64,000 bases of DNA from a virus. The DNA lies in IMG/VR virus record IMGVR_UViG_3300042923_001092, positions 39,092 to 103,091 of that record. One strand, given 5' to 3'. A program made the position numbers and the translations under genes. Below the pieces are notes generated by a model. The model was not told the DNA's origin, did no database searches, and saw only the letters and a list, made by a program, of their open reading frames with translations. Shown piece by piece: positions 6,326 through 38,587 of this stretch; the first letter of the stretch is position 1, and every line of letters begins with the position of its first letter.

Positions 6326-6328
6326 AGC

Positions 6329-7588
6329 ATGTCTGATATTATGAACAATATAGTTAAAAGAGGTAAACTTAAAAAAATTAAAAAAATGATAAATATGAAA
6401 GTGCTTCTTAAAGCAATTAATGTCACAACTAAATCAGCAAATATATATGGAGAGGAGTTATATGATTTATGTCCAGATCCAAAACATAAAGATTCATCTC
6501 CAAGTTGGTCTATAAATATTGAGCCAGAAAGTGAAAAGTTTGGTGTTCACAGTTGCTTTAGTTGTGGATATCGTGGCAACTTTATAACATTGACAAGAGA
6601 TAAACTGTCTCAATCCACCGGTAAGAAATTAACAAATGCAGATGCTATAGAATTTATTGTCAAATTATTCTCATTAGGAGATATTGATGAAGATTCGTTA
6701 TATGGATTAATACTTGATGAAAGAGAACAGATGTTGGAAGATTTTGAAAAAGAGCCAGAAGGTCCTAAAGAGTCAAGCTTACCAAATGATGAAAAATCAG
6801 GTTTTTTTAAACTTTTAAAACCTGAAAATAAATTATATTGGAATTACCTTACGAAGCCTATTTTAGAGGGCGGTAGAGGCATACCTGCCAACTTAATTGA
6901 TAAATATCATATTGGATTTTGTGATAGTGGTCTATATAGGAAAAGAATTATAATACCTTTTTGGCAAGAAGGTAAATTAATATCATTTCTTGCAAGAAGT
7001 GTATTACCAACTATAAAATCTCAAAAGAAAAATGGAGAAGATTTTATAATTTGTCCAGAGTGTGGTAAATTAAATGCTTTTATAAATAAAGAATGTACGA
7101 AGTGCGATTGTATTTTAACCGGATATGTTGTTAAGAAAGCTAGATCAAGATATCCAAAAGGAAGTACAATGGAATATATGCTTTGGGCATATGATGAGTT
7201 AGATTATAGTTTAGATTATGTAATTCTTTGTGAAGGGGCTATGGATAAACTAAGATTAGAAAGTCTTGGTTATAAAAATGTAATGTGCGTATTTGGAAAT
7301 AAAATATCAGATTTTCAAGTAGAACTTCTTAAAAAGTTTGAACAAAAGATAGGTAAAAAATTAAGAGTTTTTTTATTTCCAGATGCTGACGAAGGTGGAG
7401 ATATTTTAATAGATTTTGCTAACCAGAAAATAAAATATTTATTTCAAGCATTTGTTATAGAATTACCATGGATTGAGTCTAATCCATTAGATCCAGGAAG
7501 CGCAACAGAAAAGCAAATACGTATAGCAGTTAATACTTGTGAAAAATTATATAAAGTTTATATGAGAAAATTTGAAAAAAATTACTAG
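6329..7588 (+). CDS. dnaG: DnaG-type primase with an extra internal zinc ribbon
   Basis: CHC2 finger CPDPKH...CFSC; TOPRIM ILCEGAMD and FPDADEGG; extra CPEC...CTKC. Confidence 0.85.
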   Translation: MSDIMNNIVKRGKLKKIKKMINMKVLLKAINVTTKSANIYGEELYDLCPDPKHKDSSPSWSINIEPESEKFGVHSCFSCGYRGNFITLTRDKLSQSTGKKLTNADAIEFIVKLFSLGDIDEDSLYGLILDEREQMLEDFEKEPEGPKESSLPNDEKSGFFKLLKPENKLYWNYLTKPILEGGRGIPANLIDKYHIGFCDSGLYRKRIIIPFWQEGKLISFLARSVLPTIKSQKKNGEDFIICPECGKLNAFINKECTKCDCILTGYVVKKARSRYPKGSTMEYMLWAYDELDYSLDYVILCEGAMDKLRLESLGYKNVMCVFGNKISDFQVELLKKFEQKIGKKLRVFLFPDADEGGDILIDFANQKIKYLFQAFVIELPWIESNPLDPGSATEKQIRIAVNTCEKLYKVYMRKFEKNY

Positions 7589-7594
7589 GTCTAC

Positions 7595-7624
7595 ATTTAT
7601 TTTTAAATTTCTTAGGATATAATA
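7595..7624 (+). promoter_or_regulatory. Class II (SigF-like) promoter, variant -35
   Basis: ATTTA-N15-GGATATAATA. Confidence 0.55.
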
Positions 7625-7632
7625 TAATTAAG

Positions 7633-7845
7633 GTGGTATTTCAAATGCGAAATATAGTAAGTTTTAAAATGAAGGATGGTACTATAAAATATAAATTTAG
7701 TTGGGTCGATTTAACAAGTGATTCTGAAGAACCTATAGTTGAATGGGCAACTGAAGAAGAATTTTGGTCGATGATGGATACAGCATCTTTCCAAGAATAT
7801 GCATGGATAAAGTTTTGGCCAGTTTGTACTAAATGTAGAAAATAG
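7633..7845 (+). CDS. Hypothetical protein
   Basis: ORF downstream of promoter, RBS AAGGTGG. Confidence 0.55.
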   Translation: MVFQMRNIVSFKMKDGTIKYKFSWVDLTSDSEEPIVEWATEEEFWSMMDTASFQEYAWIKFWPVCTKCRK

Positions 7846-7855
7846 GGGGTAATAA

Positions 7856-8158
7856 ATGTATTCTTTAGAACAAATTAATAATTTATCTGATACTATAGTT
7901 AAAGAATTTTATGATATGAATGATCAGCAAAGATGGTTTATATCATCACTTGTACAAAATGAAAAATTAAAATGGACTAGAATAGAATTAATGAAGATGC
8001 TTATGATTTTTAATTATTCTGTAGAAATAAAATGCGATATTGCTTCAGAAGAAGTAAATCAGCTTTCTAAATTTATTGATGATAATTCTAAAATAATAAG
8101 TGATATTTTTAGTCTTTCAGATAATAAATTTAGAAAAGAGCATGGAGCTTATAATTAA
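7856..8158 (+). CDS. Hypothetical protein
   Basis: Co-directional ORF with RBS. Confidence 0.6.
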   Translation: MYSLEQINNLSDTIVKEFYDMNDQQRWFISSLVQNEKLKWTRIELMKMLMIFNYSVEIKCDIASEEVNQLSKFIDDNSKIISDIFSLSDNKFRKEHGAYN

Positions 8159-8167
8159 GGAGAAAAT

Positions 8168-8416
8168 ATGGTTAAAAAATGTGGGGTTTTTAAATGTAAT
8201 AATAAAATTGATTTTAGTGTATTATGCTTAAGCTGCGTTACAAAAGACAATATTGTATGTAATATTAAAAATCAGTGTAATTATTGTAAACAAAAATCGT
8301 ATTGTACATTTAAATGTATCGTTTGTCCGGAATGTGGAGAAGAGTTTCATAAATCTCCTATAATGAATAAGTTCGAATGTCCAAATTGTAAAAAGGAGCT
8401 TAATGATGGAATATAA
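8168..8416 (+). CDS. Cys-rich small protein (multiple CxxC)
   Basis: CLSC, CNYC, CPEC, CPNC; RBS AAGGAG. Confidence 0.65.
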   Translation: MVKKCGVFKCNNKIDFSVLCLSCVTKDNIVCNIKNQCNYCKQKSYCTFKCIVCPECGEEFHKSPIMNKFECPNCKKELNDGI

Positions 8417-9029
8417 ATATAATAGTACATATAAGGTATTGAAAACAATTTCTTTTACTAAAGAAATAAGTACAACAAGAATTTTTAAAAATGATAAAAA
8501 TTATAAAGAGACAATAAATAATACACTATATTCTTTAATAAGTTCATTAGGTAAAGAATATAATAAAATATGTATTGTTTGTATAGGATCTGATAGAGCA
8601 ACAGGAGATTGTCTAGGTCCTATTGTTGGAAAGTTTTTAAGTGAAAAATTTGAAGACGATGATTTTATAAAAGTGTATGGAACTTTATTAAATCCTATTC
8701 ATGCAAAAAATATTGAAGAACTAATGGATTCGTTAGATTATTCTAATTCATTAGTAATAGCGATCGATGCTTCTGTAGGAGATGACCAAAATCCTTTGCA
8801 TGAAGTTGGTAGTATAATTATAAGAGATGCTGCATTAATGCCTGGTAAAGGTTGTGGTAAAGATCTTGGTCATATAGGAGATATCTCAATCACTGGTATT
8901 ACTACACATAATGCTTTTTATTTAAGAGATGTAAGACTATTATATGTTTTTGATATGGCAGAAAAGATTTATAAAGGATTAAAACCAGTATTAAATACTT
9001 TAAAGAAAGAATTTGTTTTAAGGGGATAA
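8403..9029 (+). CDS. yyaC: Spore protease YyaC (DUF1256, GPR-like) family protein
   Basis: CIGSDRATGDCLGPIVG, VYGTL..PIHAKN, IAIDASVG, PGKG.GKDL..IGDISITGI. Confidence 0.88.
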   Translation: MMEYKYNSTYKVLKTISFTKEISTTRIFKNDKNYKETINNTLYSLISSLGKEYNKICIVCIGSDRATGDCLGPIVGKFLSEKFEDDDFIKVYGTLLNPIHAKNIEELMDSLDYSNSLVIAIDASVGDDQNPLHEVGSIIIRDAALMPGKGCGKDLGHIGDISITGITTHNAFYLRDVRLLYVFDMAEKIYKGLKPVLNTLKKEFVLRG

Positions 9030-9031
9030 AT

Positions 9032-9205
9032 ATGAAAAGCTCAAAATCTTATTTTAAATTATCTAAACAAGAAAATGTCTTTTGTCCTAAATGTAATAAA
9101 GTAGTATATAGGCTTTCAGACGACAAAAGACAAGATAGTCCAAAATTTTATATATGTTTTGATTGCAAATTTATTGGACATATTGGAGTTGGCCAAGTCA
9201 CTTAA
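9032..9205 (+). CDS. 57-aa zinc-ribbon protein (not in supplied ORF track)
   Basis: Manual translation MKSSKSYFKLSKQENVFCPKCNK...YICFDCKFIGHIGVGQVT; RBS AGGGG. Confidence 0.6.
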   Translation: MKSSKSYFKLSKQENVFCPKCNKVVYRLSDDKRQDSPKFYICFDCKFIGHIGVGQVT

Positions 9206-9242
9206 ATCAAAGAGTAATATGATTCAAAATAAACGTTCTTTT

Positions 9243-9272
9243 GTTAAAAAAAGAAATTATTTTGATATTATT
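9243..9272 (+). promoter_or_regulatory. Class II (SigF-like) promoter
   Basis: GTTAA-N15-TGATATTATT. Confidence 0.7.
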
Positions 9273-9300
9273 ATATTAGGTTATAAAAAGGAGTGACGAA

Positions 9301-11202
9301 ATGGCTGTAAAATTATTAAAACAAAAAAAAGAATTTAATGAACAGCAACAAGAAGTAATAAACCATAATTATGGGGCATGTGTAGTAGTAGCCGTTGCTG
9401 GAGCTGGTAAAACTACAGCTGTTGTTGAAAGAATAAATAGAATGTTAAGAAATGGAATAGCAAGACCAAGTCAGATTTGTGCTACTACATTTACGAAAAA
9501 AGCTGCTGGTGAAATGAATGACAGACTTAAAGCTTTAGGTGTAGATACTGACGAAATGCAAGTTTCTACTTTTCATTCAATTTGTTATAAAATAATGCTC
9601 GAGGAGCTTAAAAAAGTCAAAGCCAAATACGATTTAGATGCCACTGGAAGTAAGTCTAAAGCGCTTTTAAAATATGTATTGGGTTATCAATGTATGGATT
9701 GGAAAACAGCTAATATCAGTGAAGTAGATATGTTTATATCCAATTGTAAAAATTCATTATTAAGACCTAAAGATTTAGATATAAATGTATGTGGTTATTA
9801 TTTAAAACAAGCATATGAGTTATATGAAAAAAATAGAGAAGAAAGACAATTTTTAACATTTGACGATATGCTTATTAGATGTTGGGAAATATTTGATGAA
9901 CATCCAGAAATTTTAAAATATTGGCAATCTAAATTTAAATTTGTAATTGTAGATGAGTTTCAAGATACTAATAAGGCACAATATGAAATAATGAAAATGC
10001 TATCATATCCGGAAAATAATTTAATGGTGGTTGGCGATGATGACCAGTCTATATATAAGTTCAGAGGAGCAGTACCAGAATATATGATTAATTTTGAAAA
10101 TGATTTTAATGCTAGAGTAATAAGGATGGAAAAAAACTATAGATGCCCTCAAATTATTGGTAAATTAGCTAATCCTCTTATTTCTAATAATGAAAAAAGA
10201 TTAATTAAAGTTCTTTCTGCACAAAAACAAAATGAAGGCAATTTAAAAATTATAGATTGTTATGATTTTGACGAGGAAGCTGCTATGGTAACTGAATATA
10301 TAAAATCGTTACCCGAATTTATAAATAAACAGTATGGAAAAATATCAGTTCTATATCGTGCTAATGCCCAATCTAGGGCGATCGAAGATATGCTTATAAT
10401 GGAAAATATACCTTACGAATTAGTTGGTGGTATGAACTTCTATCAAAGAAAAGAAATAAAAGATATATTACATTATTTTTATGCAGCATTTGATTCTCAA
10501 GGCAGGGGCGAGGAGGGATATGAAAGAATTATAAATGTCCCTTTTAGATATATAGGCAAAGCATTTATGGAAGATTTACAAAAATTTAGAAAAAATACTG
10601 GATGTAGCTTTGAAAGAGCCTTAAAAGATATGAGAATGACTCCAAATCAAGAAAGATCTATAGATAGTCTTTTAGATGTTATAGATACTATAAGAAAAAG
10701 AAAGCAAGAAAATCCTCAAATATTGATTTCCTGGTTAGTAAATGAGATTGGCTATTATGATTATCTCGTTAAACAAGAAGGTGATAAAGAAGAAGAAAGT
10801 AGTAGATCTTCTAATATAAAAGAATTGATACGTGCATCTGGTAAATTTAGTACTGTAGAAAAATTTATAGAATATATAGATATGTTAAATACTAAGAAAA
10901 AGAAAAATGGTCCAAAAAATAAAGTTATACTTTCTACTATACATAGATCAAAAGGGCTTGAATGGGATAATGTAATTATAATAGGATTAAACGAATTATT
11001 ACTCCCACATAGCAGGAGTTTAGATCCAGAATCTATTGAAGAAGAAAGAAGACTTGCATATGTAGCTATAACAAGATCAAAAGAAAGACTATTATTAAGT
11101 TTTGTTCAAACTGCATCTGTTGGTGGAGGAATTAGAGAATTAAAGCCTAGTAGATTTATTTCGGAAATGGGATTAGCTGGTAAAGGTAAATATTTATATT
11201 AA
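9301..11202 (+). CDS. pcrA: UvrD/PcrA-family SF1 helicase
   Basis: AVAGAGKTT, TTFTKKAAGEM, VDEFQDTN, VGDDDQSIYKFRGA, STIHRSKGLEW, EERRLAYVAITR. Confidence 0.95.
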   Translation: MAVKLLKQKKEFNEQQQEVINHNYGACVVVAVAGAGKTTAVVERINRMLRNGIARPSQICATTFTKKAAGEMNDRLKALGVDTDEMQVSTFHSICYKIMLEELKKVKAKYDLDATGSKSKALLKYVLGYQCMDWKTANISEVDMFISNCKNSLLRPKDLDINVCGYYLKQAYELYEKNREERQFLTFDDMLIRCWEIFDEHPEILKYWQSKFKFVIVDEFQDTNKAQYEIMKMLSYPENNLMVVGDDDQSIYKFRGAVPEYMINFENDFNARVIRMEKNYRCPQIIGKLANPLISNNEKRLIKVLSAQKQNEGNLKIIDCYDFDEEAAMVTEYIKSLPEFINKQYGKISVLYRANAQSRAIEDMLIMENIPYELVGGMNFYQRKEIKDILHYFYAAFDSQGRGEEGYERIINVPFRYIGKAFMEDLQKFRKNTGCSFERALKDMRMTPNQERSIDSLLDVIDTIRKRKQENPQILISWLVNEIGYYDYLVKQEGDKEEESSRSSNIKELIRASGKFSTVEKFIEYIDMLNTKKKKNGPKNKVILSTIHRSKGLEWDNVIIIGLNELLLPHSRSLDPESIEEERRLAYVAITRSKERLLLSFVQTASVGGGIRELKPSRFISEMGLAGKGKYLY

Positions 11203-11231
11203 AATAAATGATAATATTTTGTCAAAATGGG

Positions 11232-11260
11232 TTTACAAATTGTTTCTTATTAATTATAAT
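11232..11260 (+). promoter_or_regulatory. sigmaA-type promoter
   Basis: TTTACA-N17-TATAAT upstream of the sigma-like gene. Confidence 0.75.
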
Positions 11261-11341
11261 AATATTATAAATTTAAATTATAACCAAATAGATAATACAT
11301 TATAACGAAATAAGAAAATTTGTAAATTTGGGAGGTTACAT

Positions 11342-12082
11342 ATGGAGGAGAAGAAATTTGACGAGTCTAAAATTCTTTTATATAAAGAGACTGGAGACGA
11401 GTCAATATTTGAAGAAATTATTTCAAATAAAGATATAAAGAAATATATATATTCAGTATGTCATGACAAAATGAGGAATTATCCTAGTTCTTTAATGGGA
11501 TTTGATGATTTCGAAAGTCAAGCTTATTTAGTGTTATGGCAATGTATTAAGAAATATAAATTTCGATGTCCAATATGTGGTATTCAAGCTAAAACCGAAT
11601 CGGTATATAAACTTCATATGCTAACAAAACACAATGAATATCGAGAACCAGCAACGAGTATATCTAAATACATAAAGTTTAATCTCGGTGCATATCTTCA
11701 AAATGAATTAAGGAAAGAATATAGTGAAGAAAGAAAGTCTAATATAATGACTGTTAGTATTTATTCCGGCCAAAACAGTGAAGAAAAAGATGAGACTATT
11801 AATGATAGAGTTGAATTTGAATTTTGTCAATCAAATGGTTTTGAAGATGATGTTGTTTTTAAACAATTTTTGAATGATCTTGTCGATAAATTTGATTCTC
11901 AAACAAAAGAGATTTTTATAATGATGTTTTTAGAAAATATGAAACAAATAGATATAGCTAATACTTTATATAGACAAGGAAGATATGCAAGCGAACAATC
12001 GGCTTCTGTAGTAGTCTCTAGGACTATAAAAACTAAAATATATCCTGCTATAACTGAGATATATAGCAAGACTAATATTTAG
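11342..12082 (+). CDS. Phage sigma-70-family factor with inserted C2H2 zinc finger
   Basis: Region 2-like DDFESQAYLVLWQCIKKY...ISKYIKFNLGAYLQNELRKE; region 4-like TKEIFIMMFLENMKQIDIANTL; insert CPICG...KLHMLTKH. Confidence 0.65.
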   Translation: MEEKKFDESKILLYKETGDESIFEEIISNKDIKKYIYSVCHDKMRNYPSSLMGFDDFESQAYLVLWQCIKKYKFRCPICGIQAKTESVYKLHMLTKHNEYREPATSISKYIKFNLGAYLQNELRKEYSEERKSNIMTVSIYSGQNSEEKDETINDRVEFEFCQSNGFEDDVVFKQFLNDLVDKFDSQTKEIFIMMFLENMKQIDIANTLYRQGRYASEQSASVVVSRTIKTKIYPAITEIYSKTNI

Positions 12083-13201: not shown

Positions 13202-14119
13202 GTGTCTAAATACATAATTGGTGGTGGAATAACTGGATTAATAGCTTCTTTTTATAATCCAGACTATCGAATTATAACAGATAAAATTGGTGGCCAGATG
13301 GCTGCTAATACTGCTGGTCCTAGGATTCTTGAAGTAAATGAATATTCAAGAATGTTTTTAAAAGATTTGGGATTTGAAAACGTAAATACTAAATTTGCTA
13401 AGATTGGATATAAAGTAAGAGGCAAGATAGTAGATTCTATAAGTAAAAGCTTAAGAAATAAATATTATTTAAAATCAAGATGCCTTGATGACGCCAATTT
13501 AATACCAAATTCTATAATGTCAGACGGAAAGAATACTATTGAATATTTTGATATAAGTTGGGATGAAATAATTGAAAGACTTATATCAAATATCAAAAAG
13601 CCAGTAATTAATAAAATAACTTCAATAGACACTGAAGAAAAAATAATCGTTTTAGATGGTCTTCCATTTAGATATGAAAAATTAATATCGACAATTCCTG
13701 CACCGGCTTTTTTTAAAGCATCTAAGCTTAATCCAGAAAAAGAGCTAAAATTTATTCAAAAGGTATTTATCATAGTAGATAGTAGTACCATTGATATGAG
13801 AGAATATGAATATATTTATTATCCAGAATGTCAATACCCATATCATAGGATATCGAAAGTTGGTTCTAATAAGCTTTCGATAGAATTTACTACTAATGAA
13901 GATACATCTAAGATACTTAATTATTGGAAACATATTTCCATACAAAATATAATTATACCAATAGGTCAGATACAATCTGGAATGATTAGTAAAGTTAAAG
14001 ATATATCTTTTTTTGGCAGATACGCTTGCTGGGATCATGATTTAAAAGTTGATGATGTTATTAGGCAGAGCATAGACTATAATGATACAGAAAGGAAAAA
14101 TATTTATGATGGAATATAA
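13202..14119 (+). CDS. FAD-dependent oxidoreductase (UGM/protoporphyrinogen-oxidase-like fold)
   Basis: N-terminal IIGGGITG dinucleotide motif, later IGG, LISTIP, C-terminal FGRYACW. Confidence 0.75.
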   Translation: MSKYIIGGGITGLIASFYNPDYRIITDKIGGQMAANTAGPRILEVNEYSRMFLKDLGFENVNTKFAKIGYKVRGKIVDSISKSLRNKYYLKSRCLDDANLIPNSIMSDGKNTIEYFDISWDEIIERLISNIKKPVINKITSIDTEEKIIVLDGLPFRYEKLISTIPAPAFFKASKLNPEKELKFIQKVFIIVDSSTIDMREYEYIYYPECQYPYHRISKVGSNKLSIEFTTNEDTSKILNYWKHISIQNIIIPIGQIQSGMISKVKDISFFGRYACWDHDLKVDDVIRQSIDYNDTERKNIYDGI

Positions 14120-15059
14120 AGATAAGCTTAAACATATATGGGATGTTCAATTAGACTTTAATAAAAAGTTTTATAAGTCTAAAATAGGTAAAGATATGAA
14201 TGATATGACTATGGAAGAAAAGGTATTTTGGTCAAAAAATCAATTACTTTCTATAGTTAAAGAATCTATGGAAGTACTTGATGAAATTCCTAATTGGAAG
14301 GAGCATAGAAACATAGCTACAGAATTTATACCATCAAATCTTTTTGAAGAGATTATCGATGTTAATAAGTTCTCTTTAGGGCTTGCTCAAATATGGGGTA
14401 TGACTTTCGAGGATTATTATAAAGAATACCTTAGAAAAAGTTGGGTTGTTGATCAGCGTTGGACTCAAGAACATGACTTAAAATCTATAAACGAAGACGA
14501 TAAGATTGTTGGAATAGATATTGATGGAATATTAGGAGATTATCCAAAATGGTTTCTTAAATTTGTTTATGAAAAAACTGGTAAAGAGTTTAATACACTT
14601 GAGCAAGTTAAAAATTGTTTCGGTACTTCGGAATATGAGGGATTAAAGTCTTTATACAGACAGTCAGGATGGAAAGCAACAATGCCTGTTTGTGAACATG
14701 CATCTGAATTTACAAATCTTCTTCATAACAAAGGATATAAAATAATAATACTTACAGCTAGACCTTATAAGGATTATTATACTATTTATCCGGATACATT
14801 ACAATTTCTTAAAGAAAATGAAATATATTTTGATGCTATAATTTGGGATGAAGAAAAACATTTAAGGATTATTAAAGAATTTCCGAAAATGCTTTTTATG
14901 ATTGATGATACACTTGAAGTGGCAGAAGCAGTTGCAGCAGAAGGATATGTTGTATTTTTAAAACAGACAGAGCCTTTTGTCAATATCGATCCTAAATTTT
15001 GGGATAAAATTATTACATTTAGTGACCTATTAGAAATACCCGAAAAATGGAATATATAA
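14082..15059 (+). CDS. Fusion of all-alpha NTP pyrophosphatase (dimeric dUTPase/dCTPase-like) and HAD 5'-nucleotidase (start probably 14106/14109)
   Basis: IVKESMEVLDEIPNWKEH...EEIIDV (EXXE/EXXD helices); IVGIDIDGI, ILTARP, MIDD HAD motifs. Confidence 0.75.
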   Translation: MIQKGKIFMMEYKDKLKHIWDVQLDFNKKFYKSKIGKDMNDMTMEEKVFWSKNQLLSIVKESMEVLDEIPNWKEHRNIATEFIPSNLFEEIIDVNKFSLGLAQIWGMTFEDYYKEYLRKSWVVDQRWTQEHDLKSINEDDKIVGIDIDGILGDYPKWFLKFVYEKTGKEFNTLEQVKNCFGTSEYEGLKSLYRQSGWKATMPVCEHASEFTNLLHNKGYKIIILTARPYKDYYTIYPDTLQFLKENEIYFDAIIWDEEKHLRIIKEFPKMLFMIDDTLEVAEAVAAEGYVVFLKQTEPFVNIDPKFWDKIITFSDLLEIPEKWNI

Positions 15060-15135: not shown

Positions 15136-15582
15136 ATGGCTATTTTATTTTTTGTAGGTGTTGATAAAACAGGTAAAACTACTTTATTAAAAAATGTTTT
15201 AAAAGAAACTAATCGTCATATATGTATTGATAGATTTACTCCATGTCAAGTAGTATACGGAAGAATACATGATAAAAAAGACACACCAAAAGTTAAAGAA
15301 TTTAGAGAATTAGAAACATTTTTACGATATTCTCCTATACCAGCTGCATTTGTTTATGTGTCAGCAGAGACAGATATGATAATAAAAAGATTTAAGCAGC
15401 ATGATGAAAAAGATATAGATATTAGTCAAATAAGTATTGTTAAAATTTTATATGATCAGTACTTAAGTTCATCTCCGCTACCATGTTTACGTATTGATAC
15501 AACCGGAGACTCAATAGAAAAATGCACTAATACGATTATCGAGTTTGCAGATAGGCTTGATAGAAAGGAGATTTATATATGA
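15136..15582 (+). CDS. Nucleoside-monophosphate kinase (Tmk-like, second paralogue)
   Basis: P-loop GVDKTGKTT, IDRF motif. Confidence 0.75.
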   Translation: MAILFFVGVDKTGKTTLLKNVLKETNRHICIDRFTPCQVVYGRIHDKKDTPKVKEFRELETFLRYSPIPAAFVYVSAETDMIIKRFKQHDEKDIDISQISIVKILYDQYLSSSPLPCLRIDTTGDSIEKCTNTIIEFADRLDRKEIYI

Positions 15583-16595
15583 AAGCAAAATTAGGGCTTG
15601 GTGGATATTTTACAGACACCAAAGACAATCCAGCTTCCATTATAAGATATGCTTATGATTTTGGTGGAGTAAGATTTTTTGATACTTCACCAGTATATGG
15701 AACTAGTGAGCAAATTTTTGGACATGCACTAAAAGATTATCCAAGAGAATCTTATGAACTTTCAACAAAAACAAAAGCTAAAACTGTTGAAGAGCTTCAT
15801 TCTTCGTTTTTACAAAGCTTATTTAATCTTAACACTAATTATATAGATATGTATTTTGGTCATTCAGCTATAGATGATGATAATACATGGAAAGATTTTC
15901 AAAAGATAATAAATGAACTTTTAAGATTAAAGTCAATCAATTATATCAAAAAGATTGGAGTATCTGGACATTCTGTTTCTGCAGCTATAAAAGCGATAAA
16001 CAGTGGTTTGATTGATGTTATAATGGTACCTCATTCTATAATGTACAGAAAATTTGAAGGAGTGATTCAATTAGCTAAGTCCAAAAACATAGAAGTAATT
16101 ACTATGAAAAACTTTGCTAGTGGAATATTGCTTGGTGGTCCGGATACTAATGAATATAAAAAAGACGTATCAATGCAGGATATTATCAATTTTTCTTCTT
16201 ATTGCGGAGATATAATAATACCAACTCCAAGATCTATTAATCAATTTAAAGAAATAAGTAACTGTTATCTAAATGCAGCTGAACTTAATACATCTAAATT
16301 AATTAATATAGAAAGTAAGATAATAAAACATCTTGGCACGGATTTTTGCAGATTTTGTAATGAATGCAGACCCTGCCCTAAGCATGGATGGCAAATGTCA
16401 CAACCAAGCATCTTAAAGGCAATGTTATATCAGTCAAAGTTAGGAATAGATGGAAAAGAAAGATATTCTAATTTTGCTTATAATGTAAATCATTGCGAAG
16501 GATGTGATAGCGAATGCTCGCATATGTGCCCTTTTGGTATAGATATTAAAGAAAAAATGCAAAATGCACACAACATTTTTACAGGAGGAAAATAA
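15579..16595 (+). CDS. Aldo/keto reductase with C-terminal 4Fe-4S dicluster
   Basis: FFDTSPVYG.SE, STKT, YID.Y..H, KKIGVSGH; CRFCNECRPCP and CEGCDSECSHMCP. Confidence 0.85.
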   Translation: MKAKLGLGGYFTDTKDNPASIIRYAYDFGGVRFFDTSPVYGTSEQIFGHALKDYPRESYELSTKTKAKTVEELHSSFLQSLFNLNTNYIDMYFGHSAIDDDNTWKDFQKIINELLRLKSINYIKKIGVSGHSVSAAIKAINSGLIDVIMVPHSIMYRKFEGVIQLAKSKNIEVITMKNFASGILLGGPDTNEYKKDVSMQDIINFSSYCGDIIIPTPRSINQFKEISNCYLNAAELNTSKLINIESKIIKHLGTDFCRFCNECRPCPKHGWQMSQPSILKAMLYQSKLGIDGKERYSNFAYNVNHCEGCDSECSHMCPFGIDIKEKMQNAHNIFTGGK

Positions 16596-17663
16596 ATGGA
16601 TGTAGTTAATGAAAAAGCAGCTAAAAAAATATTGCCATATGTAAAGTCAATAGAAAATGGTACTATAAAAGGCCCAATTTCGTTGCACTTATTAATAACT
16701 GACTTTTGTGTTAATAAGTGCAACATGTGTGGACATTGGAAGACTAAATGCAAAAAAAGTTTAAGTCTTGATGTTATAAAAAACATTTGGTCAGAGATGA
16801 ACGAAAATGATTGTGAATCAGTTTGTCTTACTGGCGGAGATCCAATTTTGCATCCAAATTTTGAGGAAATATTAGATCTTAAAAGAAATTTTGACCTTGG
16901 TGTTATTTGTACCGGAAATTTTAATCCAAAATTTGATTTTGAAAAGCTTTCCAAACTTAAATGGTTACGCTTTTCTATTGATTCTTTAAACCTTGATAGA
17001 TATATGGAAATAAGAGGTTTGAGTAATTTATATTCAGTTATAATTCCTAATCTTATAAAGGCTAAGAATTATATAGATCAGGTCGGTATAAATTTCACTA
17101 TACAAAAGAAAAATATTATGGATGTAAGAGATATTGTAAAATTTGCTTATAATGAAGAAATTTATAGACTTATGATATATCCAATGCATGGTGATAGTGA
17201 CTTATGCTTAAATTCTGAAGATATTAAAGTTGTTTTAGAACAATTAAGAGAAGTAATTAAGTACGGATTTCATAAAGAAATACCAGAAAATAATATTGTA
17301 TTTTTGTATCAAAGTTTAAAAGCAGCTTTAGAAAAAGACACTGAAGTAAGAAAAGCAGTTTTTGATTATTCTAAATATCCTTGTATTATAAATAAAATAC
17401 ATTTATCTGTAGGTTCTGATGGAAATGTATTTCCTTGTGAAATGATTGCAGATGATACAGATGCATATGGAGAAAGAGATTTTTGGGATACACATTCACA
17501 TTATAATAGTCTTGGAAACGTGAATGAAGAAAGTTTGATGAAAATATGGAAAAATAATTTTGACAACTCCTTTTGTTCCGGAAAATGTGAAAATTGCTTC
17601 AGTAGATATTTACCTATTAATAAAGCTTATTATGAAAATATTGGAAAGAGGATATTTATATGA
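16596..17663 (+). CDS. Radical SAM enzyme with SPASM/twitch domain
   Basis: CVNKCNMC (CX3CX2C), LTGGDP, FSIDSL, C-terminal GSDGNVFPC...CSGKCENC. Confidence 0.9.
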   Translation: MDVVNEKAAKKILPYVKSIENGTIKGPISLHLLITDFCVNKCNMCGHWKTKCKKSLSLDVIKNIWSEMNENDCESVCLTGGDPILHPNFEEILDLKRNFDLGVICTGNFNPKFDFEKLSKLKWLRFSIDSLNLDRYMEIRGLSNLYSVIIPNLIKAKNYIDQVGINFTIQKKNIMDVRDIVKFAYNEEIYRLMIYPMHGDSDLCLNSEDIKVVLEQLREVIKYGFHKEIPENNIVFLYQSLKAALEKDTEVRKAVFDYSKYPCIINKIHLSVGSDGNVFPCEMIADDTDAYGERDFWDTHSHYNSLGNVNEESLMKIWKNNFDNSFCSGKCENCFSRYLPINKAYYENIGKRIFI

Positions 17664-17962
17664 GAATAACAGGTATATATAGTCCATTAAAAATATATTT
17701 TGATCTTGGTGGCCAGATGGCTGGTAAGAGATGTTTTACATTATGCAAAGATACTTATTCTGAAAACGACAGGTATACTATTTGGCTTGATGGTTCCAGA
17801 TTAAAATGCAAAAGAGAACAGATAATAGATACAATGAATGAACATTTAAGAATAATTGACAAAAATGTTAAATTGTCTAATGAACAAATTGACTTTATTA
17901 ATGAAATAATAAAAAATCATAAATTCGAAATGAATTATTATTTTGCGATAGAAACAATTTAA
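17660..17962 (+). CDS. Hypothetical protein in the modification operon
   Basis: ATGA-coupled to the radical SAM gene. Confidence 0.6.
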   Translation: MRITGIYSPLKIYFDLGGQMAGKRCFTLCKDTYSENDRYTIWLDGSRLKCKREQIIDTMNEHLRIIDKNVKLSNEQIDFINEIIKNHKFEMNYYFAIETI

Positions 17963-17970: not shown

Positions 17971-18000
17971 GTTAATAAATGATTCTAATATGATATAATA
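17971..18000 (+). promoter_or_regulatory. Class II (SigF-like) promoter
   Basis: GTTAA-N15-TGATATAATA. Confidence 0.75.
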
Positions 18001-18028
18001 TTATTATAAAACAATAAAGGAGGAAATA

Positions 18029-19075
18029 ATGGAAAACTCAATTCAAAAAATAAATGAATTAAGAAGTGTTATGGGAACTTTACCAGATCAGGACCCGCAG
18101 CTTAAAACTGAATTTATTAAGGGCGTTACTGGAATTTCAGTTGAACTTATCGGAACAGTAGAAAATCCGTATAAGCCGATGTTTATATTAGGGACTACAT
18201 GCTGGGGTAAGAAAGTTAATAAATGGGAAGAAACATTACCCGAACACAGGTTTGAAGTAGTAAAGGCGGCTTTAAGGGGTCAGGCATTACCTCTTGCATT
18301 GGAAACTCCTCAGTTTTCATTTGCTATTGAAGGTCCATCAAGAGCGGCATTTGATCAGATTGCAAGAGCAAGGCTTGGTGTTGTATTTTCTGCCAGAGGT
18401 ATGAGAGATAATAATTGGAAAGACGCTTCAATTCGTATTCCGACTTCTTTGTGGCCTACAAAAAAAGAAGATATTTTGCATGATGAATATCTTCTTGATG
18501 GCAAAAGAAGCGATGAACATAATAATGCTTATATAAAGGTTGAAAACTTTAAAAATATAGAAATTACAATGCTTGAAGTAAAACAACTTTACGCTGATAT
18601 TGTAGATGTTGGAAAAGGTTCTTGGCAGGCTGCAAGGAGCGTATTGCCTTTATATGTAGTTTATGGTTTTTCAATGGGAATTAATTTCCAAGCATTAAGA
18701 AGCTTATGCAGCTCAAGAATGAAATTTTGCGAAATGGAAGATACAGTTGCAGTAGCATGGCTTTTAGCAAAAGCAGTATCTGAAAAATTCCCTTTACTTG
18801 GTTCTTATTTAAGACCCGGATGTGACTGGTCTGGTAAATGTCAGTACCATAAAGCTTATTCTTTATCTGAAATGTTCGGTTGTTTATTTAAAGAATGTGG
18901 CAGAAACGAATGCACCGATACAAATGATTATGCAGAATTTAATGAAACATGTACAAATTATCGTGATCTTGAGGAACAGCTTGGTATTCATATTACAAGG
19001 CCAAATGAGTGGCCTAAATTTGAAAATTTCGATGATTTGTCGGATATAGATAAAGCATTATTTATGCAGGATTAA
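18029..19075 (+). CDS. Divergent ThyX-fold flavoprotein (catalytic motif altered)
   Basis: FSFAIEGPSRAAFDQIARARLGVVFSARGMRD and AARSVLP...INFQALRSLCSSR map onto the ThyX scaffold, but RHR..S....SxRY is not intact. Confidence 0.7.
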   Translation: MENSIQKINELRSVMGTLPDQDPQLKTEFIKGVTGISVELIGTVENPYKPMFILGTTCWGKKVNKWEETLPEHRFEVVKAALRGQALPLALETPQFSFAIEGPSRAAFDQIARARLGVVFSARGMRDNNWKDASIRIPTSLWPTKKEDILHDEYLLDGKRSDEHNNAYIKVENFKNIEITMLEVKQLYADIVDVGKGSWQAARSVLPLYVVYGFSMGINFQALRSLCSSRMKFCEMEDTVAVAWLLAKAVSEKFPLLGSYLRPGCDWSGKCQYHKAYSLSEMFGCLFKECGRNECTDTNDYAEFNETCTNYRDLEEQLGIHITRPNEWPKFENFDDLSDIDKALFMQD

Positions 19076-19210: not shown

Positions 19211-19759
19211 ATGCATGGATTAGGTTTAAGACAAATGATAGAAAATCTTGAAACTTTTATAGTTGAAAAAGGAAAACCTGTTGTTGTAGACAATCAGGGA
19301 ACTATAGAAGTTTTAAATCATAGTTTCAATATTACTTATAATAGTATTATTGATATTGAAGATATACAAAAGCATATGAAAGATTATTATGACGTAAATG
19401 GTATTGATTATTCTAAAATTGAGGAACTTGAAAAAAATGAATATTCGTTAATCGAAAACGAACTTTATAGCAAGTTTGCTTTATTCAATGATGATATTCA
19501 TTCAAGAAGGGTCCTTTGGTCTGATGATTGCTGTATCAGTTTAATTCATTATCTCATCCGGGATAAGAAAATCTATTGCTTTGTTCATTTAAGAAGTTCT
19601 GACATCGTAAATAAGTTATTTTCTGATCTATTTTTAATTCATAAGATAACAAGGCAACTTCAGGATGATCTTGATATTAAAGATGTTAATATTTGTGTAA
19701 ACGGTCACAGCATGCACAAGCTGGTATTAAACAATATGAACAAGTGTAAAAATGAGTAA
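19211..19759 (+). CDS. Short thymidylate-synthase/dCMP-hydroxymethylase-fold protein, dCMP-type Asp
   Basis: DDCCISLIHYLIRD, RSSDIVNKLFSDL, GHSMH correspond to the TS PC, RSxDxxxGxPxN and H motifs, with N replaced by D. Confidence 0.75.
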   Translation: MHGLGLRQMIENLETFIVEKGKPVVVDNQGTIEVLNHSFNITYNSIIDIEDIQKHMKDYYDVNGIDYSKIEELEKNEYSLIENELYSKFALFNDDIHSRRVLWSDDCCISLIHYLIRDKKIYCFVHLRSSDIVNKLFSDLFLIHKITRQLQDDLDIKDVNICVNGHSMHKLVLNNMNKCKNE

Positions 19760-22700
19760 GTTCTGCCCAAAAATTAATGGCCCTGTAGTCTATCTCGATT
19801 GCCTTGAGTGTGACTACAGGGTTTGTGTTAAAGGAGGAAAAGAATTGGCAAAGATAATAAAAAAAATAAAACAACCAGAACAAGAGGTACCAGACAAAAA
19901 GGTAAAAAAAATTAAATCGTCTGAAATAGATGAACAAGTAAAAGAAGCTAAAAAAAATATTCGACAAAAATCAGTACCTGTTATGGAGTCAAAATATTCT
20001 GGTATAATAAAACCAAGAAATGTGGCTATCCCAACTCGAGACCTAATTCAATTTATTCCGGAACATATACATACAGATTATTCAACAAAAGATGCTGCTA
20101 TGTCTATTGATGAATATATTGAGTCACTTAAAGAAATGGGATTTAAAGGTGGTACAATTACTGAACATGGAAATATGTCAAGTTCAGTAAAGTTTTATAA
20201 AGCTATGAAGGCTAATGGGCTTAAACCTATTTTAGGTAATGAAATCTATACGGATGATAATATCGAGCTTAAAATAGAGGCTTCATTAGAAAGGTCAAAG
20301 AGGAAAAAGGACGATGAGGCAGCAGAAGGTGGATATTTGGATGATGAGTATGGTCATCTTGTAGTATTAGCTCCAACTAATGAAGCTTATAATGAATTAT
20401 TATTAACTACTGCTAAAGGATTTAGAGATGGTTTTTATAAGAGGCCAAGAGTTACACACGAATGGATTTTAAATGAAGCTTCAAAACACCAGATTACCAC
20501 TACAGCCTGCCTTGCATCGAAGTTTAATTATTATATAAGGTGCGGCCAGGATAAGGAGGCTAAACAGCTTCTTAGTGATTATAAGTCAGCTTTTGGTGAT
20601 AGGTTTTATGCTGAACTTCATTTTAATGAATTAGAAATACAAAGATATTGTACTAATAAGTTATTAGAATTTTGCAAAGAACTTAAAATACCTTGGATGA
20701 TTGGTCTTGATGCACATTATGCAAAAAAAGAACATGCTGAGTATCATGACTATATGAAAGATATGTTTTATAAGGGTTCATTATCTAAACCATCTTCTTT
20801 AAGATATAATACTAGAGAATTATATCTTAAAAATTCAAATGAAGTTCTTCATTCAGCACTAAAATGGGACTATGGAATTGATCAAAAAGATATAATAATT
20901 GGATTGAATAGAACTAATGAATTATACGATAGAACAACATTTGAAATGGAAATGGGAAAGTTAAGGTTTCCAAAATTTAGTAATGATCCTAATTTTGATC
21001 CAGTAGCAGAGTTAAAAAAGAAATGTATAAGAGGATATAATAAAAGAAAGAAACAAGGATTACTTCCTGCACCGGGATATGCAGATCAAGACTATAAGGA
21101 TAGGTTTAATAAAGAATTTCCAGTAATAGTTAGTAAAGGTTATGCTGATTACTTTTTAATAGTTTCTGAATATACAGATTATTGTGTACAGACTGAATTA
21201 TTTAAAGGTCCCGGAAGAGGTAGTGCTGCAGGTGCTTTGATTTCTTGGTTGCTTGATATTACTAAGATTGACCCTATAAGATATGGACTATTCTTTGAAA
21301 GGTTTCTTAATGAAGAACGTGCTGATCCACCAGATATTGACCTCGATTTTGATTCTGAAAGAAGATTTGAAATTGAAGAACTTTTAATAAGAAAAAATGG
21401 TCCAGAAAAGGTTGCTCACATTATGTCATTTGGTACATGGGGATGTAAAAGTATTCTTGGAGAATTATCAAAAGTATTTGAACTTCCTTGGGGTGTTGTA
21501 GATAAACTTAAAAAATTATGTAATGATGATCAATCGCTGCAGGAAAATATTGATAGAATATTAGGAATAAAGCCAGTTAAAAAGATAAAGAAAGATGGTA
21601 CAGTGCAAGAAATATTTGAAATACCATCTCCAGATATAAAGGAGTTTATTGAGAATAATGAAAAATTCTTTACTGTATGTAAATTTTTTGAAGGTAAAGT
21701 TAGGAACTATTCAATGCATGCTTCTGGTGTAGTTGTAACTCCAGGACCTATGGAAGAACTTGCTCCAATAAACAGAGCTTCTGGGCAAATAGTTACTGGT
21801 CTTCAAGAAGGTGGAGATATAAGAGAAATATCAGATATAGGGTTACTTAAATTTGATATTTTGGGTCTTAATAACTGTACTATAGTTAATAGGACTTTAA
21901 AGTCTATTAAAAGAAGAAAAGGCATAACCATTGATATAGATGCTATTGATCTTGAAGACGATAATTTATTAGAAAGATTTAGAAAAGGGCATACAACGGG
22001 AATATTTCAGTTTGAGTCTACCGGTATTACTAAATTTATGAAAGATATTCAGCCACAAAGACTTGAAGATTTAATTATAGTTAATGCTGCTTATCGACCA
22101 GGTACATTAAGAGCTGGTGGTGTTGATGCTATCATAGAAAATAGGCATTCAGATAATATTGATTATATGCATCCAGCTATTGAAGAAGTTTTAGGTCCAA
22201 CATATAATGTTTTAGTTTATCAAGAACAGCAGATGGCTTTAATGGCTCAAGTTGGTGGATTTACAATGGTTGAAGCTGATAAATCTAGGAAGACTATTAA
22301 GTTAATTAATAAAGCTTCTACTGCTTCACCAGAACAGTTAAAGAAATTTTATGATATGATCGAGCATTTTAAGCAAGGTGCTCATGAAAAAACTGGACTC
22401 TCGCATGAAAAATTACAAAAGCTTGTTGATGCAATGGCTGCGGCTGCTGACTATTCATTTAATAAATCTCATAGTTGTAGTTATGCTATTATAGCAATGC
22501 AGGATATGTATTTGAAGCATTATTATCCAGCTGACTATGCAGCTGCTTTCCTAAGTAGGACTAAAAATGAAGAAAAGAAAGGTAAAGCAGGACATAAGAC
22601 TGGGGAGAACAAAATTGAAAAATATGTAAAAATGGCAATAATTGAAATGGATTTAAACATTGCTCCTCCGGATGTTTCAATTTCTGGAGTAGATTGGATA

Positions 22701-23441
22701 CCTAAAGACGATAAGACTATAATACCTTCATTAACTTTTATTAAAGGTGTTGGTGAAGCTGCAGTTCCTCAAATTGTTAAGCACCAGCCATATGCCACTT
22801 TAGAGTCATTCTTTGAATGTGATATGGATTGGAGGTTAGTTAATAAAAGGGTTGTTGAAGCATTAATCCAGACAGGGTCTTTTAACAATCTATATCCGTA
22901 TAGGAAAACATTATTGGAGGTATATACAAAGTGGAATGCTGCTGGTAAAAAGAACTTTTCAAAAATACTTGAAAAAGTAGAAAATGAAATGGGTCAAGTT
23001 GATATAGACTTTGACGAGGGAATGATTATTGAAAAAGAATTATTTGGATTTTATTTCAGTGCTAATCCATTAGACAAATATAAAGAAATTGTAAAAGAAA
23101 GAGAAATAAAAGAAGTAAGTGACTTAGCAAAAGGTAAGAAATGGAAAAAAGGGACACTTTATGGAATAATTACTAAAGCATTTCCATATAAGATTGCAAA
23201 AGGTAACATGTGTTTTGTAGATATACAAGGAAAAGATGAAACAAAAGCAAATATTACAGTTTGGCCAGAAATATATGAACAATATAAAGATATTATAAAA
23301 GAAGGAAATGTAGTCGCTATAAAAGTCAAACCCGGTAAAGGTAAAAATGATGAACCTTGTTTTTATGTTGATGAAAGCGACGAGCGAAAGAAGGTAATCT
23401 TAATGGAGCAATTATTAAAAATTAAATCAAAGCAACGTTAA
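19752..23441 (+). CDS. dnaE: DNA polymerase III alpha subunit (family C) with PHP domain
   Basis: HIHTDYS, TEHGN, GPGRGSAAG, FERFLN..R.DPPDIDLDF, GLLKFDILGL, YSFNKSHS. Confidence 0.97.
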   Translation: MSKFCPKINGPVVYLDCLECDYRVCVKGGKELAKIIKKIKQPEQEVPDKKVKKIKSSEIDEQVKEAKKNIRQKSVPVMESKYSGIIKPRNVAIPTRDLIQFIPEHIHTDYSTKDAAMSIDEYIESLKEMGFKGGTITEHGNMSSSVKFYKAMKANGLKPILGNEIYTDDNIELKIEASLERSKRKKDDEAAEGGYLDDEYGHLVVLAPTNEAYNELLLTTAKGFRDGFYKRPRVTHEWILNEASKHQITTTACLASKFNYYIRCGQDKEAKQLLSDYKSAFGDRFYAELHFNELEIQRYCTNKLLEFCKELKIPWMIGLDAHYAKKEHAEYHDYMKDMFYKGSLSKPSSLRYNTRELYLKNSNEVLHSALKWDYGIDQKDIIIGLNRTNELYDRTTFEMEMGKLRFPKFSNDPNFDPVAELKKKCIRGYNKRKKQGLLPAPGYADQDYKDRFNKEFPVIVSKGYADYFLIVSEYTDYCVQTELFKGPGRGSAAGALISWLLDITKIDPIRYGLFFERFLNEERADPPDIDLDFDSERRFEIEELLIRKNGPEKVAHIMSFGTWGCKSILGELSKVFELPWGVVDKLKKLCNDDQSLQENIDRILGIKPVKKIKKDGTVQEIFEIPSPDIKEFIENNEKFFTVCKFFEGKVRNYSMHASGVVVTPGPMEELAPINRASGQIVTGLQEGGDIREISDIGLLKFDILGLNNCTIVNRTLKSIKRRKGITIDIDAIDLEDDNLLERFRKGHTTGIFQFESTGITKFMKDIQPQRLEDLIIVNAAYRPGTLRAGGVDAIIENRHSDNIDYMHPAIEEVLGPTYNVLVYQEQQMALMAQVGGFTMVEADKSRKTIKLINKASTASPEQLKKFYDMIEHFKQGAHEKTGLSHEKLQKLVDAMAAAADYSFNKSHSCSYAIIAMQDMYLKHYYPADYAAAFLSRTKNEEKKGKAGHKTGENKIEKYVKMAIIEMDLNIAPPDVSISGVDWIPKDDKTIIPSLTFIKGVGEAAVPQIVKHQPYATLESFFECDMDWRLVNKRVVEALIQTGSFNNLYPYRKTLLEVYTKWNAAGKKNFSKILEKVENEMGQVDIDFDEGMIIEKELFGFYFSANPLDKYKEIVKEREIKEVSDLAKGKKWKKGTLYGIITKAFPYKIAKGNMCFVDIQGKDETKANITVWPEIYEQYKDIIKEGNVVAIKVKPGKGKNDEPCFYVDESDERKKVILMEQLLKIKSKQR

Positions 23442-23487: not shown

Positions 23488-24192
23488 ATGCGAGTTATTA
23501 AACCATCGTTTGAAATTAAACGCAATTTGAGTGGGGAAGAAATTTTAAAGAATATTGAAAGAGCTGGCAGGATTTGTTATAAATCCGAAGATTTAATAAC
23601 TTCAGATTCTGCAAAAAAATTTGTAAAAGGCCTTTTAAATAGAGGCCATGAAGCAATGATCGAACATGCTTTTGCTACCGTTATTATAGTTTGTGATAGA
23701 GGAGTTTCTCATGAAATTGTTCGCCATAGAGTTGCATCATATGCTCAGGAAAGTACAAGATATTGCAATTATGGAAAAGAAAAACATGATCAGGAATTGA
23801 AATTTATTGATATAGGACCAGTTATTGATAGTAAAATTGGTACTACAGTAAAAGATTCAAATGGTGAAAATGTTCTGGTAACAGGTGATTTAGCAGCTTC
23901 ATGGATTATAAGCTGGCTTGATTCAATAGCTGATTCAGAAATAGCATACATGAATATGGTAAATTCAGGATGTCCTGCAGAACTTGCAAGATCAGTTCTT
24001 CCTAATTCAATAAAAACAGAAATAGTTGTCACAATGAATTTAAGAGAATGGCGACATTTCTTTAAGCTTAGGGCTATAGGTACAACGGGAAAACCTCATC
24101 CTCAAATGGTAGAAATAGCTAAACCTTTATTAAGGGAAATGGCTGAATACATACCAGTTGTATTTGACGATCTTATTGAATTGATTAGTTAG
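23488..24192 (+). CDS. thyX: Canonical flavin-dependent thymidylate synthase ThyX
   Basis: GHEAMIEH, EIVRHRVASYAQESTRY, ARSVLPNS, NLREWRHFFKLR. Confidence 0.95.
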   Translation: MRVIKPSFEIKRNLSGEEILKNIERAGRICYKSEDLITSDSAKKFVKGLLNRGHEAMIEHAFATVIIVCDRGVSHEIVRHRVASYAQESTRYCNYGKEKHDQELKFIDIGPVIDSKIGTTVKDSNGENVLVTGDLAASWIISWLDSIADSEIAYMNMVNSGCPAELARSVLPNSIKTEIVVTMNLREWRHFFKLRAIGTTGKPHPQMVEIAKPLLREMAEYIPVVFDDLIELIS

Positions 24193-38101: not shown

Positions 38102-38587
38102 ATGGAAGAAAGAATAAGCTGGGATAATTATTTCTTATTAATTTCTAAAGTAGTTTCCTCTAGAGCAACATGTTTTAGTGAACCTAAAGGAGCAGTAATT
38201 GTCGTAAATAAGAATATTGTATCTACCGGATATAATGGGGCTCCTAGCGGTATTAAAGATTGTAAGTATGGATATAAAGAGTGTAAAAAAAGATCATTAG
38301 GTTATGGTCATGGTACTGGGCATCATATATGTCTCGCGTCACATGCTGAAGCAAACGCAATTGATCATGCAGCTAAAAATGGAATTTCTATAAATGGTGG
38401 CACGCTATATTGCACTCATAAACCATGTTCTGAATGTGCAAAACACATTATTAATTCCGGAATAATAAGAGTAGTTTATATTAATGAATACGAATCAAAC
38501 GCTTTTGAACTTTTTAATGAAGCCGGTATTGATTGTGTAAAGTCTAAAGATTTTGATTTAATTGAAATGTTAAATCAAATCAAATAA
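38102..38587 (+). CDS. dCMP deaminase
   Basis: WDNYF, STGYNGAP, HAEANAI, PCSECAK. Confidence 0.93.
   Translation: MEERISWDNYFLLISKVVSSRATCFSEPKGAVIVVNKNIVSTGYNGAPSGIKDCKYGYKECKKRSLGYGHGTGHHICLASHAEANAIDHAAKNGISINGGTLYCTHKPCSECAKHIINSGIIRVVYINEYESNAFELFNEAGIDCVKSKDFDLIEMLNQIK

Follow-up and report, generated by a model that had tools for sequence, protein, structure and literature searches.

A rewired, probably neofunctionalised ThyX-fold enzyme in a conserved nucleotide module of uncultured phages

The ThyX-like gene of the window

The DNA analysed here (the window) is a stretch of 64,000 nucleotides, positions 39,092 to 103,091 of the IMG/VR virus record IMGVR_UViG_3300042923_001092. The parent record is 107,581 bp long and has direct terminal repeats. 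The window is phage DNA of about 30% GC in which almost every gene lies on the + strand. It contains two genes related to the flavin-dependent thymidylate synthase ThyX: a canonical copy, presumed to encode the real deoxythymidine monophosphate (dTMP) synthase of the phage, and a divergent copy at positions 18029-19075, designated here as the ThyX-like gene. The latter encodes a real and probably neofunctionalised enzyme of the ThyX fold. From the family to which it belongs and the conserved gene set around it, the product of this enzyme is probably a DNA precursor different from ordinary thymidylate. The gene belongs to the core of a nucleotide module that is conserved among phages and undescribed in the literature searched, and no description of a ThyX paralogue of this type was found in the same literature.

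Fold and phylogenetic position

A structural model of the ThyX-like protein was obtained with AlphaFold2 from 36 family members, with a mean predicted local distance difference test (pLDDT) of 91.8. The top structural matches of this model are all ThyX chains. The Mycobacterium tuberculosis ThyX (3gwc) is aligned over 213 residues at 3.1 A with a VIA-align Z of 16.5, the PDB entries 3g4a and 3g4c are also among the matches, and the comparison with ThyX by Foldseek gives an E-value of 1e-9. The non-ThyX structures matched by the model all have a Z of 3.2 or less. The alignment of the family profile with canonical ThyX by hhalign has a probability of 99.8% (E-value 2.9e-28), and the relation to ThyX that had been read from the letters alone is therefore borne out at the level of the fold. 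With the single sequence as query, no match was found in the PDB, and the search in PHROGs with the protein gave no match either.

Concerning the family models, the protein passes the Pfam Thy1 gathering score (46.8 bits for a threshold of 24.8) and fails the NCBIfam equivalog model thyX TIGR02170 (27 bits for a cutoff of 87.9). The canonical ThyX of the window scores 143.9 and 130.8 bits with these two models, respectively. A BLASTP comparison between the two products of the window reveals no significant similarity (E-value 0.16). In a FastTree phylogeny, which is approximate and contains long branches, the ThyX-like family forms one clade (Shimodaira-Hasegawa-like support of 99) apart from the canonical ThyX, including the window copy. 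The ThyX-like gene, first described as a second ThyX paralogue, is indeed related to ThyX by its fold and its Thy1 match, but it is not a recent paralogue of the canonical copy: the BLASTP result and the separate deep clades lead us to reject a recent duplication.

Active-site residues kept, replaced and gained

The residue register was established by hhalign profile-profile alignment with canonical ThyX and agrees with the alignment of a hidden Markov model to M. tuberculosis (Mtb) ThyX. The canonical ThyX of the window carries SHEIVRHRVASYAQESTRY, and residues 108-128 of the ThyX-like protein are FDQIARARLGVVFSARGMRDNN. The four arginines that bind deoxyuridine monophosphate (dUMP), R87, R107, R172 and R199 in Mtb ThyX, correspond to R105, R126, R203 and R230, all invariant in the family. 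The RHRxxS...SxRY signature of ThyX is absent, the equivalent sequence being R113-A-R115...V119...G124-M-R126-D127. In this sequence the outer arginines of RHR are retained (R113 and R115), whereas the middle position, A114, is variable across the family (A, L, V, H, S, N, Q, M or T). The motif serine (S88 in Thermotoga maritima) is replaced by G124 and the motif tyrosine (Y91) by D127, both invariant. Moreover, the T. maritima H53, a histidine stacking on flavin and folate, is aligned with A86, where a small residue is found family-wide. In the alignment of 36 diverse members, the residues R105, F108, D109, Q110, R113, R115, G124, R126, D127, N128, W199, Q200, R203, P207, R230, E235, W244 and five cysteines are invariant. 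The replaced positions are of kinetic importance in T. maritima ThyX, where Y91 is the general acid in methylene transfer and its mutation slows flavin oxidation approximately 1000-fold, and where S88 and H53 place the reduced flavin and act as a gate to the folate site (PMC11940539, PMC8316439).

The sequence-only reading had described a rewired catalytic motif on a kept ARxVLP and N...R scaffold, followed by a Cys-rich tail. The rewiring is confirmed by the register for the serine and the tyrosine. The specific change of His to Ala in RHR is better described as an RxR pattern with a variable position 114, and the loss of the H53 equivalent is a further substitution beyond those first listed. 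The scaffold is retained as described, AARSVLP (R203, P207) and N218...R230 being aligned with their ThyX counterparts. The tail does contain five cysteines, but three of them (C265, C271 and C290) are not specific to the family. This triad is also present in a clade of ThyX proteins (P0243, P0255, P0258 and others) whose RHR...SQRY signature is complete and in which the gating His is retained, and that lack C234, C285, C308 and the 13-residue insert holding C285; only these last three cysteines are family-specific. The occurrence of a Cys-containing tail on ThyX with a full canonical signature indicates that such a tail is older than the rewired active site. The clade of Cys-tailed canonical ThyX (P0243, P0255, P0256, P0258, P0259, P0264 and P0266-P0268) displays a C-terminal PKC...GxCxE...CG extension. 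A search of the atlas with the Cys-rich tail has recovered only fragments of the same family and no independent look-alike family.

The family thus shares with canonical ThyX, or FDTS (EC 2.1.1.148; PF02511; TIGR02170; T. maritima TM0449 and M. tuberculosis Rv2754c), the fold, the arginines, ARxVLP and N...R. It differs by RxR, by Gly and Asp in place of Ser and Tyr, by Ala in place of the gating His, by an additional N-terminal helix with the invariant residues R12 and M15-G16-T17, by the new invariants D109, N128, W199, C234 and E235, by a longer Cys-rich tail, by a score far under the equivalog cutoff and by its co-occurrence with canonical thymidylate synthases (TS).

Extent and integrity of the family

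Among 5.8 billion clustered proteins, 241 relatives (clusters at 90% identity) were recovered, all of them with Thy1, and an exhaustive profile search has detected 76 representative clusters at E<1e-30 and 486 at E<1e-10. For this widespread family of uncultured phages, the annotation "thymidylate synthase ThyX" is currently routine. The related copies found in 34 viral records are all open frames without stops. No sign of decay is therefore seen in the relatives, and with the motif residues invariant and all copies intact, a pseudogene was rejected. Cultured phages were searched by tblastn (50,697 phage records) with the ThyX-like protein, with subunit B of the split form described below, with the flavoprotein of the module (p13202) and with its small TS-like protein, and no family member was detected.

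Several members are lengthened by inteins to 480-717 amino acids (Hint, Intein_splicing and LAGLIDADG matches). The insertion points, at five or more sites, are F108|D109, S121|122, G124|125, N128|129 and F233|C234, and in the relatives all of them fall within three conserved motifs of the family. Inteins tend to home to functionally critical sites. Their confinement to the motifs thus points, from the sequences, to a very probable location of the working centre of the enzyme in these motifs. In locus L024, inteins are present both in the DnaE polymerase (5734-9957, with an N-terminal uracil-DNA glycosylase (UDG) domain) and in the ThyX-like gene (9986-11431).

Phages also carry an outer clade, whose RTHQRTR...GRDN motifs are intermediate (L071 10001-11014, L072 160-1215 and L073 6001-7155). 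Its loci adjoin DnaE or PolB and have, in place of the module described below, a nucleoside 2-deoxyribosyltransferase and an HD-type nucleotidase as neighbours.

A split form with complementary subunits

In 39 viral loci, two ThyX-like open reading frames (ORFs) in tandem stand in place of the single gene, as at L030 9986-10804 and 10794-11513. In subunit A (approximately 270 amino acids), conservation is 97-100% for the N-terminal motifs, R105, GxRDN, W199, Q200, R203 and P207, and Q110, R113, R115, R230, C234, E235 and the tail have been lost. Subunit B (approximately 240 amino acids) is the exact mirror of A in the motifs kept and lost. In the tree, A and B both nest within the family amid single-chain members, which points to an origin by duplication. 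The ThyX active site is assembled from several subunits. Together with this property, the complementary loss of motifs implies that the A/B pair would be an obligate heteromer needing one full set of motifs, and the 39 split loci suggest that the family probably forms an oligomer with shared active sites, as in ThyX. Directly 3' of the B subunit, GroES- and GroEL-like genes are found in 27 loci (L030 11513-13464 and 26 others). In a subgroup of the split form, DnaE is encoded by two consecutive ORFs of 427 and 748 amino acids (L030 5472-6755 and 6757-9003; also L032, L043 and L068).

The conserved module and its neighbours

The gene context was surveyed by calling the ORFs in 65 loci and searching them iteratively with the window proteins. 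The ThyX-like gene is accompanied by a flavoprotein similar to UDP-galactopyranose mutase (UGM), an NTP-pyrophosphatase fused to a phosphatase, a P-loop kinase, a small TS-like protein (mini-TS) and, usually adjoining, a DnaE polymerase (Table 1).

Table 1. Coordinates of the features discussed, in positions of the window
Feature	Position	Strand	Evidence and remarks
ThyX-like gene	18029-19075	+	ORF of 348 amino acids with ATG start; Thy1 match, model pLDDT, structural Z and 241 homologues given in the text
ThyX-fold domain, approximately residues 27-260	18107-18808	+	structural alignment to ThyX chains over residues 27-270; hhalign
Rewired signature R105-...-F108-D109-Q110-..-R113-A-R115-...-G124-M-R126-D127-N128 (for R..HE..RHR..S....SxRY)	18341-18412	+	invariant columns
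W199-Q200-A-A-R203-S-V-L-P207 motif, equivalent to ThyX ARxVLP (R203 = Mtb R172)	18623-18649	+	W199, Q200, R203 and P207 invariant
R230-M-K-F-C234-E235 motif (R230 = Mtb R199 / T. maritima R174)	18716-18733	+	F233|C234 is a recurrent intein point in relatives
Cys-rich C-terminal extension (C265, C271, C285, C290, C308)	18809-19072	+	invariant Cys columns
Promoter-like site GTTAAT-N15-GATATAAT upstream of the ThyX-like gene	17971-17999	+	one copy of a recurring phage motif
Ribosome-binding site AAAGGAGG	18016-18023	+	read off the sequence; ATG 5 nucleotides further on
UGM/amine-oxidase-like flavoprotein	13202-14119	+	305 amino acids; 46 of 65 loci
All-alpha NTP-pyrophosphatase fused to a haloacid dehalogenase (HAD)/NT5C-like phosphatase	14082-15059	+	PHROG and Pfam matches, NT5C match in relatives; 47 of 65 loci
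P-loop (deoxy)nucleoside monophosphate kinase	15136-15582	+	phrog_761 thymidylate kinase, 1e-7; 44 of 65 loci
Mini-TS, TS core only	19211-19759	+	182 amino acids; PF00303 matches in relatives; 43 of 65 loci
DnaE-type replicative polymerase, usually adjoining the module	19752-23441	+	Pfam annotation in relatives; 38 of 65 loci
Canonical ThyX	23488-24192	+	234 amino acids; Thy1 and TIGR02170 scores given in the text
Deoxycytidine monophosphate (dCMP) deaminase, supplier of dUMP	38102-38587	+	PF00383, 77.6 bits at G000:77208-77573 (window 38117-38482)

The flavoprotein displays GxGxxG, a "STIP" motif and a C-terminal GRYAQWxH, and its profile matches the UDP-galactopyranose mutases with an E-value of 4e-7. 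The kinase and the mini-TS domain are fused in seven loci. Across 28 relatives of the mini-TS, the residues R99, C108 (the nucleophile position), R128, S129, D139 and H169 are invariant. D139 occupies the position of ThyA Asn177 (R128+11), where an Asp marks the TS enzymes acting on dCMP, such as the T4 dCMP hydroxymethylase and the N177D variants of ThyA. The prediction of a complex between the ThyX-like protein and the mini-TS has a score of 0.00, which speaks neither for nor against binding. A UDG domain is fused to DnaE in L003 and L024. A dCMP deaminase is encoded in the window genome, and in relatives it adjoins the ThyX-like gene.

Between the kinase and the ThyX-like gene, the block 15579-17962 encodes an aldo-keto reductase whose tail is Cys-rich and Fe-S-like, a radical S-adenosylmethionine (SAM)/SPASM enzyme and an ORF of 100 amino acids. 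These three genes occur in two of the 65 loci, the window and its closest relative L009 only, and were rejected as core partners, being a lineage-specific insertion. The link to the radical SAM and aldo-keto reductase neighbours is thus specific to one lineage, the conserved partners being other genes. A SPASM enzyme paired with a small ORF is as reminiscent of a set for peptide maturation as of a nucleotide pathway.

The spacer of 66 bp on the 5' side of the ThyX-like gene contains both the ribosome-binding site and the promoter-like site listed in Table 1. At the same upstream site, a sigma-70-type scan also gives TTAATA-16-TATAAT with an extended -10 TG. The pattern GTTWAY-N15-RATATWAT, with fixed spacing, is found at 13 sites in the window for 0.13 expected by chance, in agreement with the earlier proposal that the gene has its own promoter. 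These sites are listed at 2486, 6227, 13148, 17971, 23437, 26386, 28010, 35557, 36238, 40928, 43917 (- strand), 46376 and 49305, and are located mainly 5' of genes for replication and nucleotide metabolism. A DUF1256 gene (YyaC-like, related to a sporulation protease) is present at 8403-9029 amid the phage replication genes and hints at a host belonging to the Firmicutes.

Co-occurrence with other thymidylate synthases

Eight complete or terminally repeated genomes with a ThyX-like gene were inspected for other thymidylate synthases. A canonical ThyX is present alongside the ThyX-like gene in four of them (the window genome, G001, G002 and G006), and a full-length ThyA in one (G033). In phages, an anticorrelation between TS and ThyX is the normal situation (PMC7824862). 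The presence of a canonical TS in five genomes of eight, despite this usual anticorrelation, supports a distinct function and argues against simple redundancy.

Comparison with known ThyX variants

The only biochemically characterised ThyX paralogue recruited to a second pathway is PolB of the polyoxin pathway of Streptomyces, which methylates UMP and dUMP (PMC5954106). PolB (4p5b) has a Z of 15.6 to the model of the ThyX-like protein, a value that differs by no more than 1 Z unit from those of many ThyX chains. It is a bacterial enzyme of antibiotic synthesis that still methylates, whereas the ThyX-like family is found only in phages.

Contrary to PolB, the ThyX-derived variants SP-15 gp130, YerA41 and Carin-5 come from phages, and their authors presume that they synthesise 5-hydroxymethyl-dUMP (PMC5977210, PMC12686479, PMC13697223). 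Their setting is similar: they are divergent Thy1 relatives beside nucleotide-pool genes in phages with UDG-linked polymerases. However, they comprise 387-413 amino acids, lack the GxRDN and RxKFCE motifs and represent a separate lineage. The profile of the ThyX-like family finds nothing in the SP-15, YerA41 and Carin-5 genomes, and hmmsearch --max against the three variants aligns only 26-48 residues around ARxxLP; membership in their family was rejected on these grounds. More generally, polymerases linked to UDG and variants of TS derived from ThyX are found among phages whose DNA is T-hypermodified (PMC13697223, PMC12686479, PMC5977210), and the UDG-fused DnaE of L003 and L024 recalls the link between a UDG-coupled polymerase and a T-hypermodified genome (PMC13697223).

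Proposed function and alternatives

The enzyme retains the ThyX fold and, probably, an oligomer with shared active sites and a pocket for a pyrimidine deoxynucleoside monophosphate. The residues of methylene transfer and reduction (T. maritima H53, S88 and Y91) have given way to A86, G124 and D127-N128, joined by D109, W199 and C234-E235. It would act at the stage of the nucleotide pool with the NTP-pyrophosphatase/phosphatase, the UGM-like flavoprotein, the mini-TS, the kinase and DnaE. The dCMP deaminases, encoded in this genome and adjacent to the gene in relatives, and the invariant R230 favour a uracil nucleotide as substrate. The reaction predicted as most likely would use flavin and folate to transfer a one-carbon unit to C5 of dUMP, with an end product that is not dTMP. 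The simplest candidate is 5-hydroxymethyl-dUMP, which would arise by addition of water, instead of hydride, to the exocyclic-methylene intermediate; the kinase of the module might then phosphorylate the modified product for incorporation into the phage DNA. For a flavin-dependent one-carbon modification of dUMP at C5 leading to a product other than dTMP, plausibly 5-hydroxymethyl-dUMP, we estimate the probability at about 0.5. The sequence-only reading had likewise proposed a repurposed flavin- and possibly folate-dependent enzyme feeding a modification pathway. The part of this proposal that concerns a repurposed ThyX-fold enzyme, as opposed to a decaying or redundant copy, is supported by the invariant substitutions, the intact frames, the inteins in motifs, the failure against TIGR02170 and the TS found in five genomes of eight.

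Several observations weigh against a product other than dTMP, and most of them would be accounted for by a phage-specific ThyX lineage that is divergent yet still a true flavin-dependent dTMP synthase, working with another set of catalytic residues; the canonical ThyX of this phage would then be a later and redundant acquisition. The three complete records G010, G014 and G027 contain neither canonical ThyX nor ThyA, so that the ThyX-like gene is their sole TS-like gene, as expected of a dTMP synthase, and the members of the outer clade may likewise be the sole TS of their phages. The motifs form a continuum towards canonical ThyX, the fold and the Thy1 match are those of ThyX, the four nucleotide-binding arginines are retained with R113 and R115, and a dCMP deaminase is adjacent in relatives. 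From work on S88A and S88C, S88 is reportedly dispensable as a ThyX nucleophile, and some of the substitutions may be tolerated. Nevertheless, a dTMP synthase fits poorly with the canonical ThyX or ThyA of the five other genomes, with the score of 27 bits against a cutoff of 87.9, with the tight linkage to four more nucleotide enzymes, for which an ordinary dTMP synthase has no use, and with the loss of the equivalents of H53, S88 and Y91, when mutation of Y91 costs approximately 1000-fold in rate (PMC11940539). We regard this explanation as possible but rather doubtful.

The choice of dUMP is itself open to discussion, because the invariant Asp of the mini-TS at the position of ThyA Asn177 points, from sequence comparison, to cytosine over uracil. 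The ThyX-like enzyme could thus modify C5 of dCMP, with or beside the mini-TS, and yield a modified deoxycytidylate. The acidic residues D109, D127 and E235, invariant and gained near the pocket, would suit this substrate, and the NTP-pyrophosphatase and the kinase match the logic of the 5-hydroxymethylcytosine pathway of T4. On the other hand, R230 is invariant and its ThyX counterpart (Mtb R199 / T. maritima R174) reads the O4/N3 edge of uracil, dCMP deaminases co-occur, and nothing ties the ThyX-like protein and the mini-TS to one substrate; we consider the modification of dCMP unlikely. It is more improbable still that the protein is a non-catalytic subunit binding nucleotide or flavin and serving as regulator or scaffold of the module. 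Such a pseudoenzyme could have lost the three kinetically important ThyX residues, and the subunits of the split form each lack half of the motifs. Yet A and B jointly retain the complete set, which indicates that one complete site is required, many invariant polar residues are located by homology at the positions of the ThyX pocket, and the inteins are inserted in the motifs.

Significance

The elements that are new here are the map of the inteins, the complementary A/B split, the position of the radical SAM genes outside the core and the ancestral nature of a part of the Cys tail. A broader proposal goes beyond the modification of dUMP, and we advance it only tentatively, the odds being against it as a whole. 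The ThyX-like enzyme, the mini-TS and the UGM-like flavoprotein may constitute an undescribed pathway to a C5-modified pyrimidine deoxynucleoside triphosphate, in which the ThyX-like enzyme would be the first hydroxymethylase dependent on flavin, or else a related transferase of one-carbon units. In a broad group of uncultured DnaE phages, including jumbo phages, the nucleotide would take the place of some or all of the thymine (or cytosine) of the DNA, and in half of these phages the enzyme would have become, by duplication and complementary loss, an obligate A2B2 heteromer.

The A/B split would offer a clean natural case of transition from a homo-oligomer to a heteromer by complementary loss, and it would map the residues that share one site. 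To our knowledge, the chemistry of ThyX yields methylation only (dTMP, and ribo-T in PolB). If the proposed function is true, an enzyme of the ThyX fold with another outcome would extend the flavin- and folate-dependent chemistry of one-carbon units, and it would show how a phage can start the modification of a base without a hydroxymethylase of the ThyA type. The routine annotation of the family as ThyX may hide a lineage with modified DNA, which is poorly handled by sequencing and by restriction-based methods.

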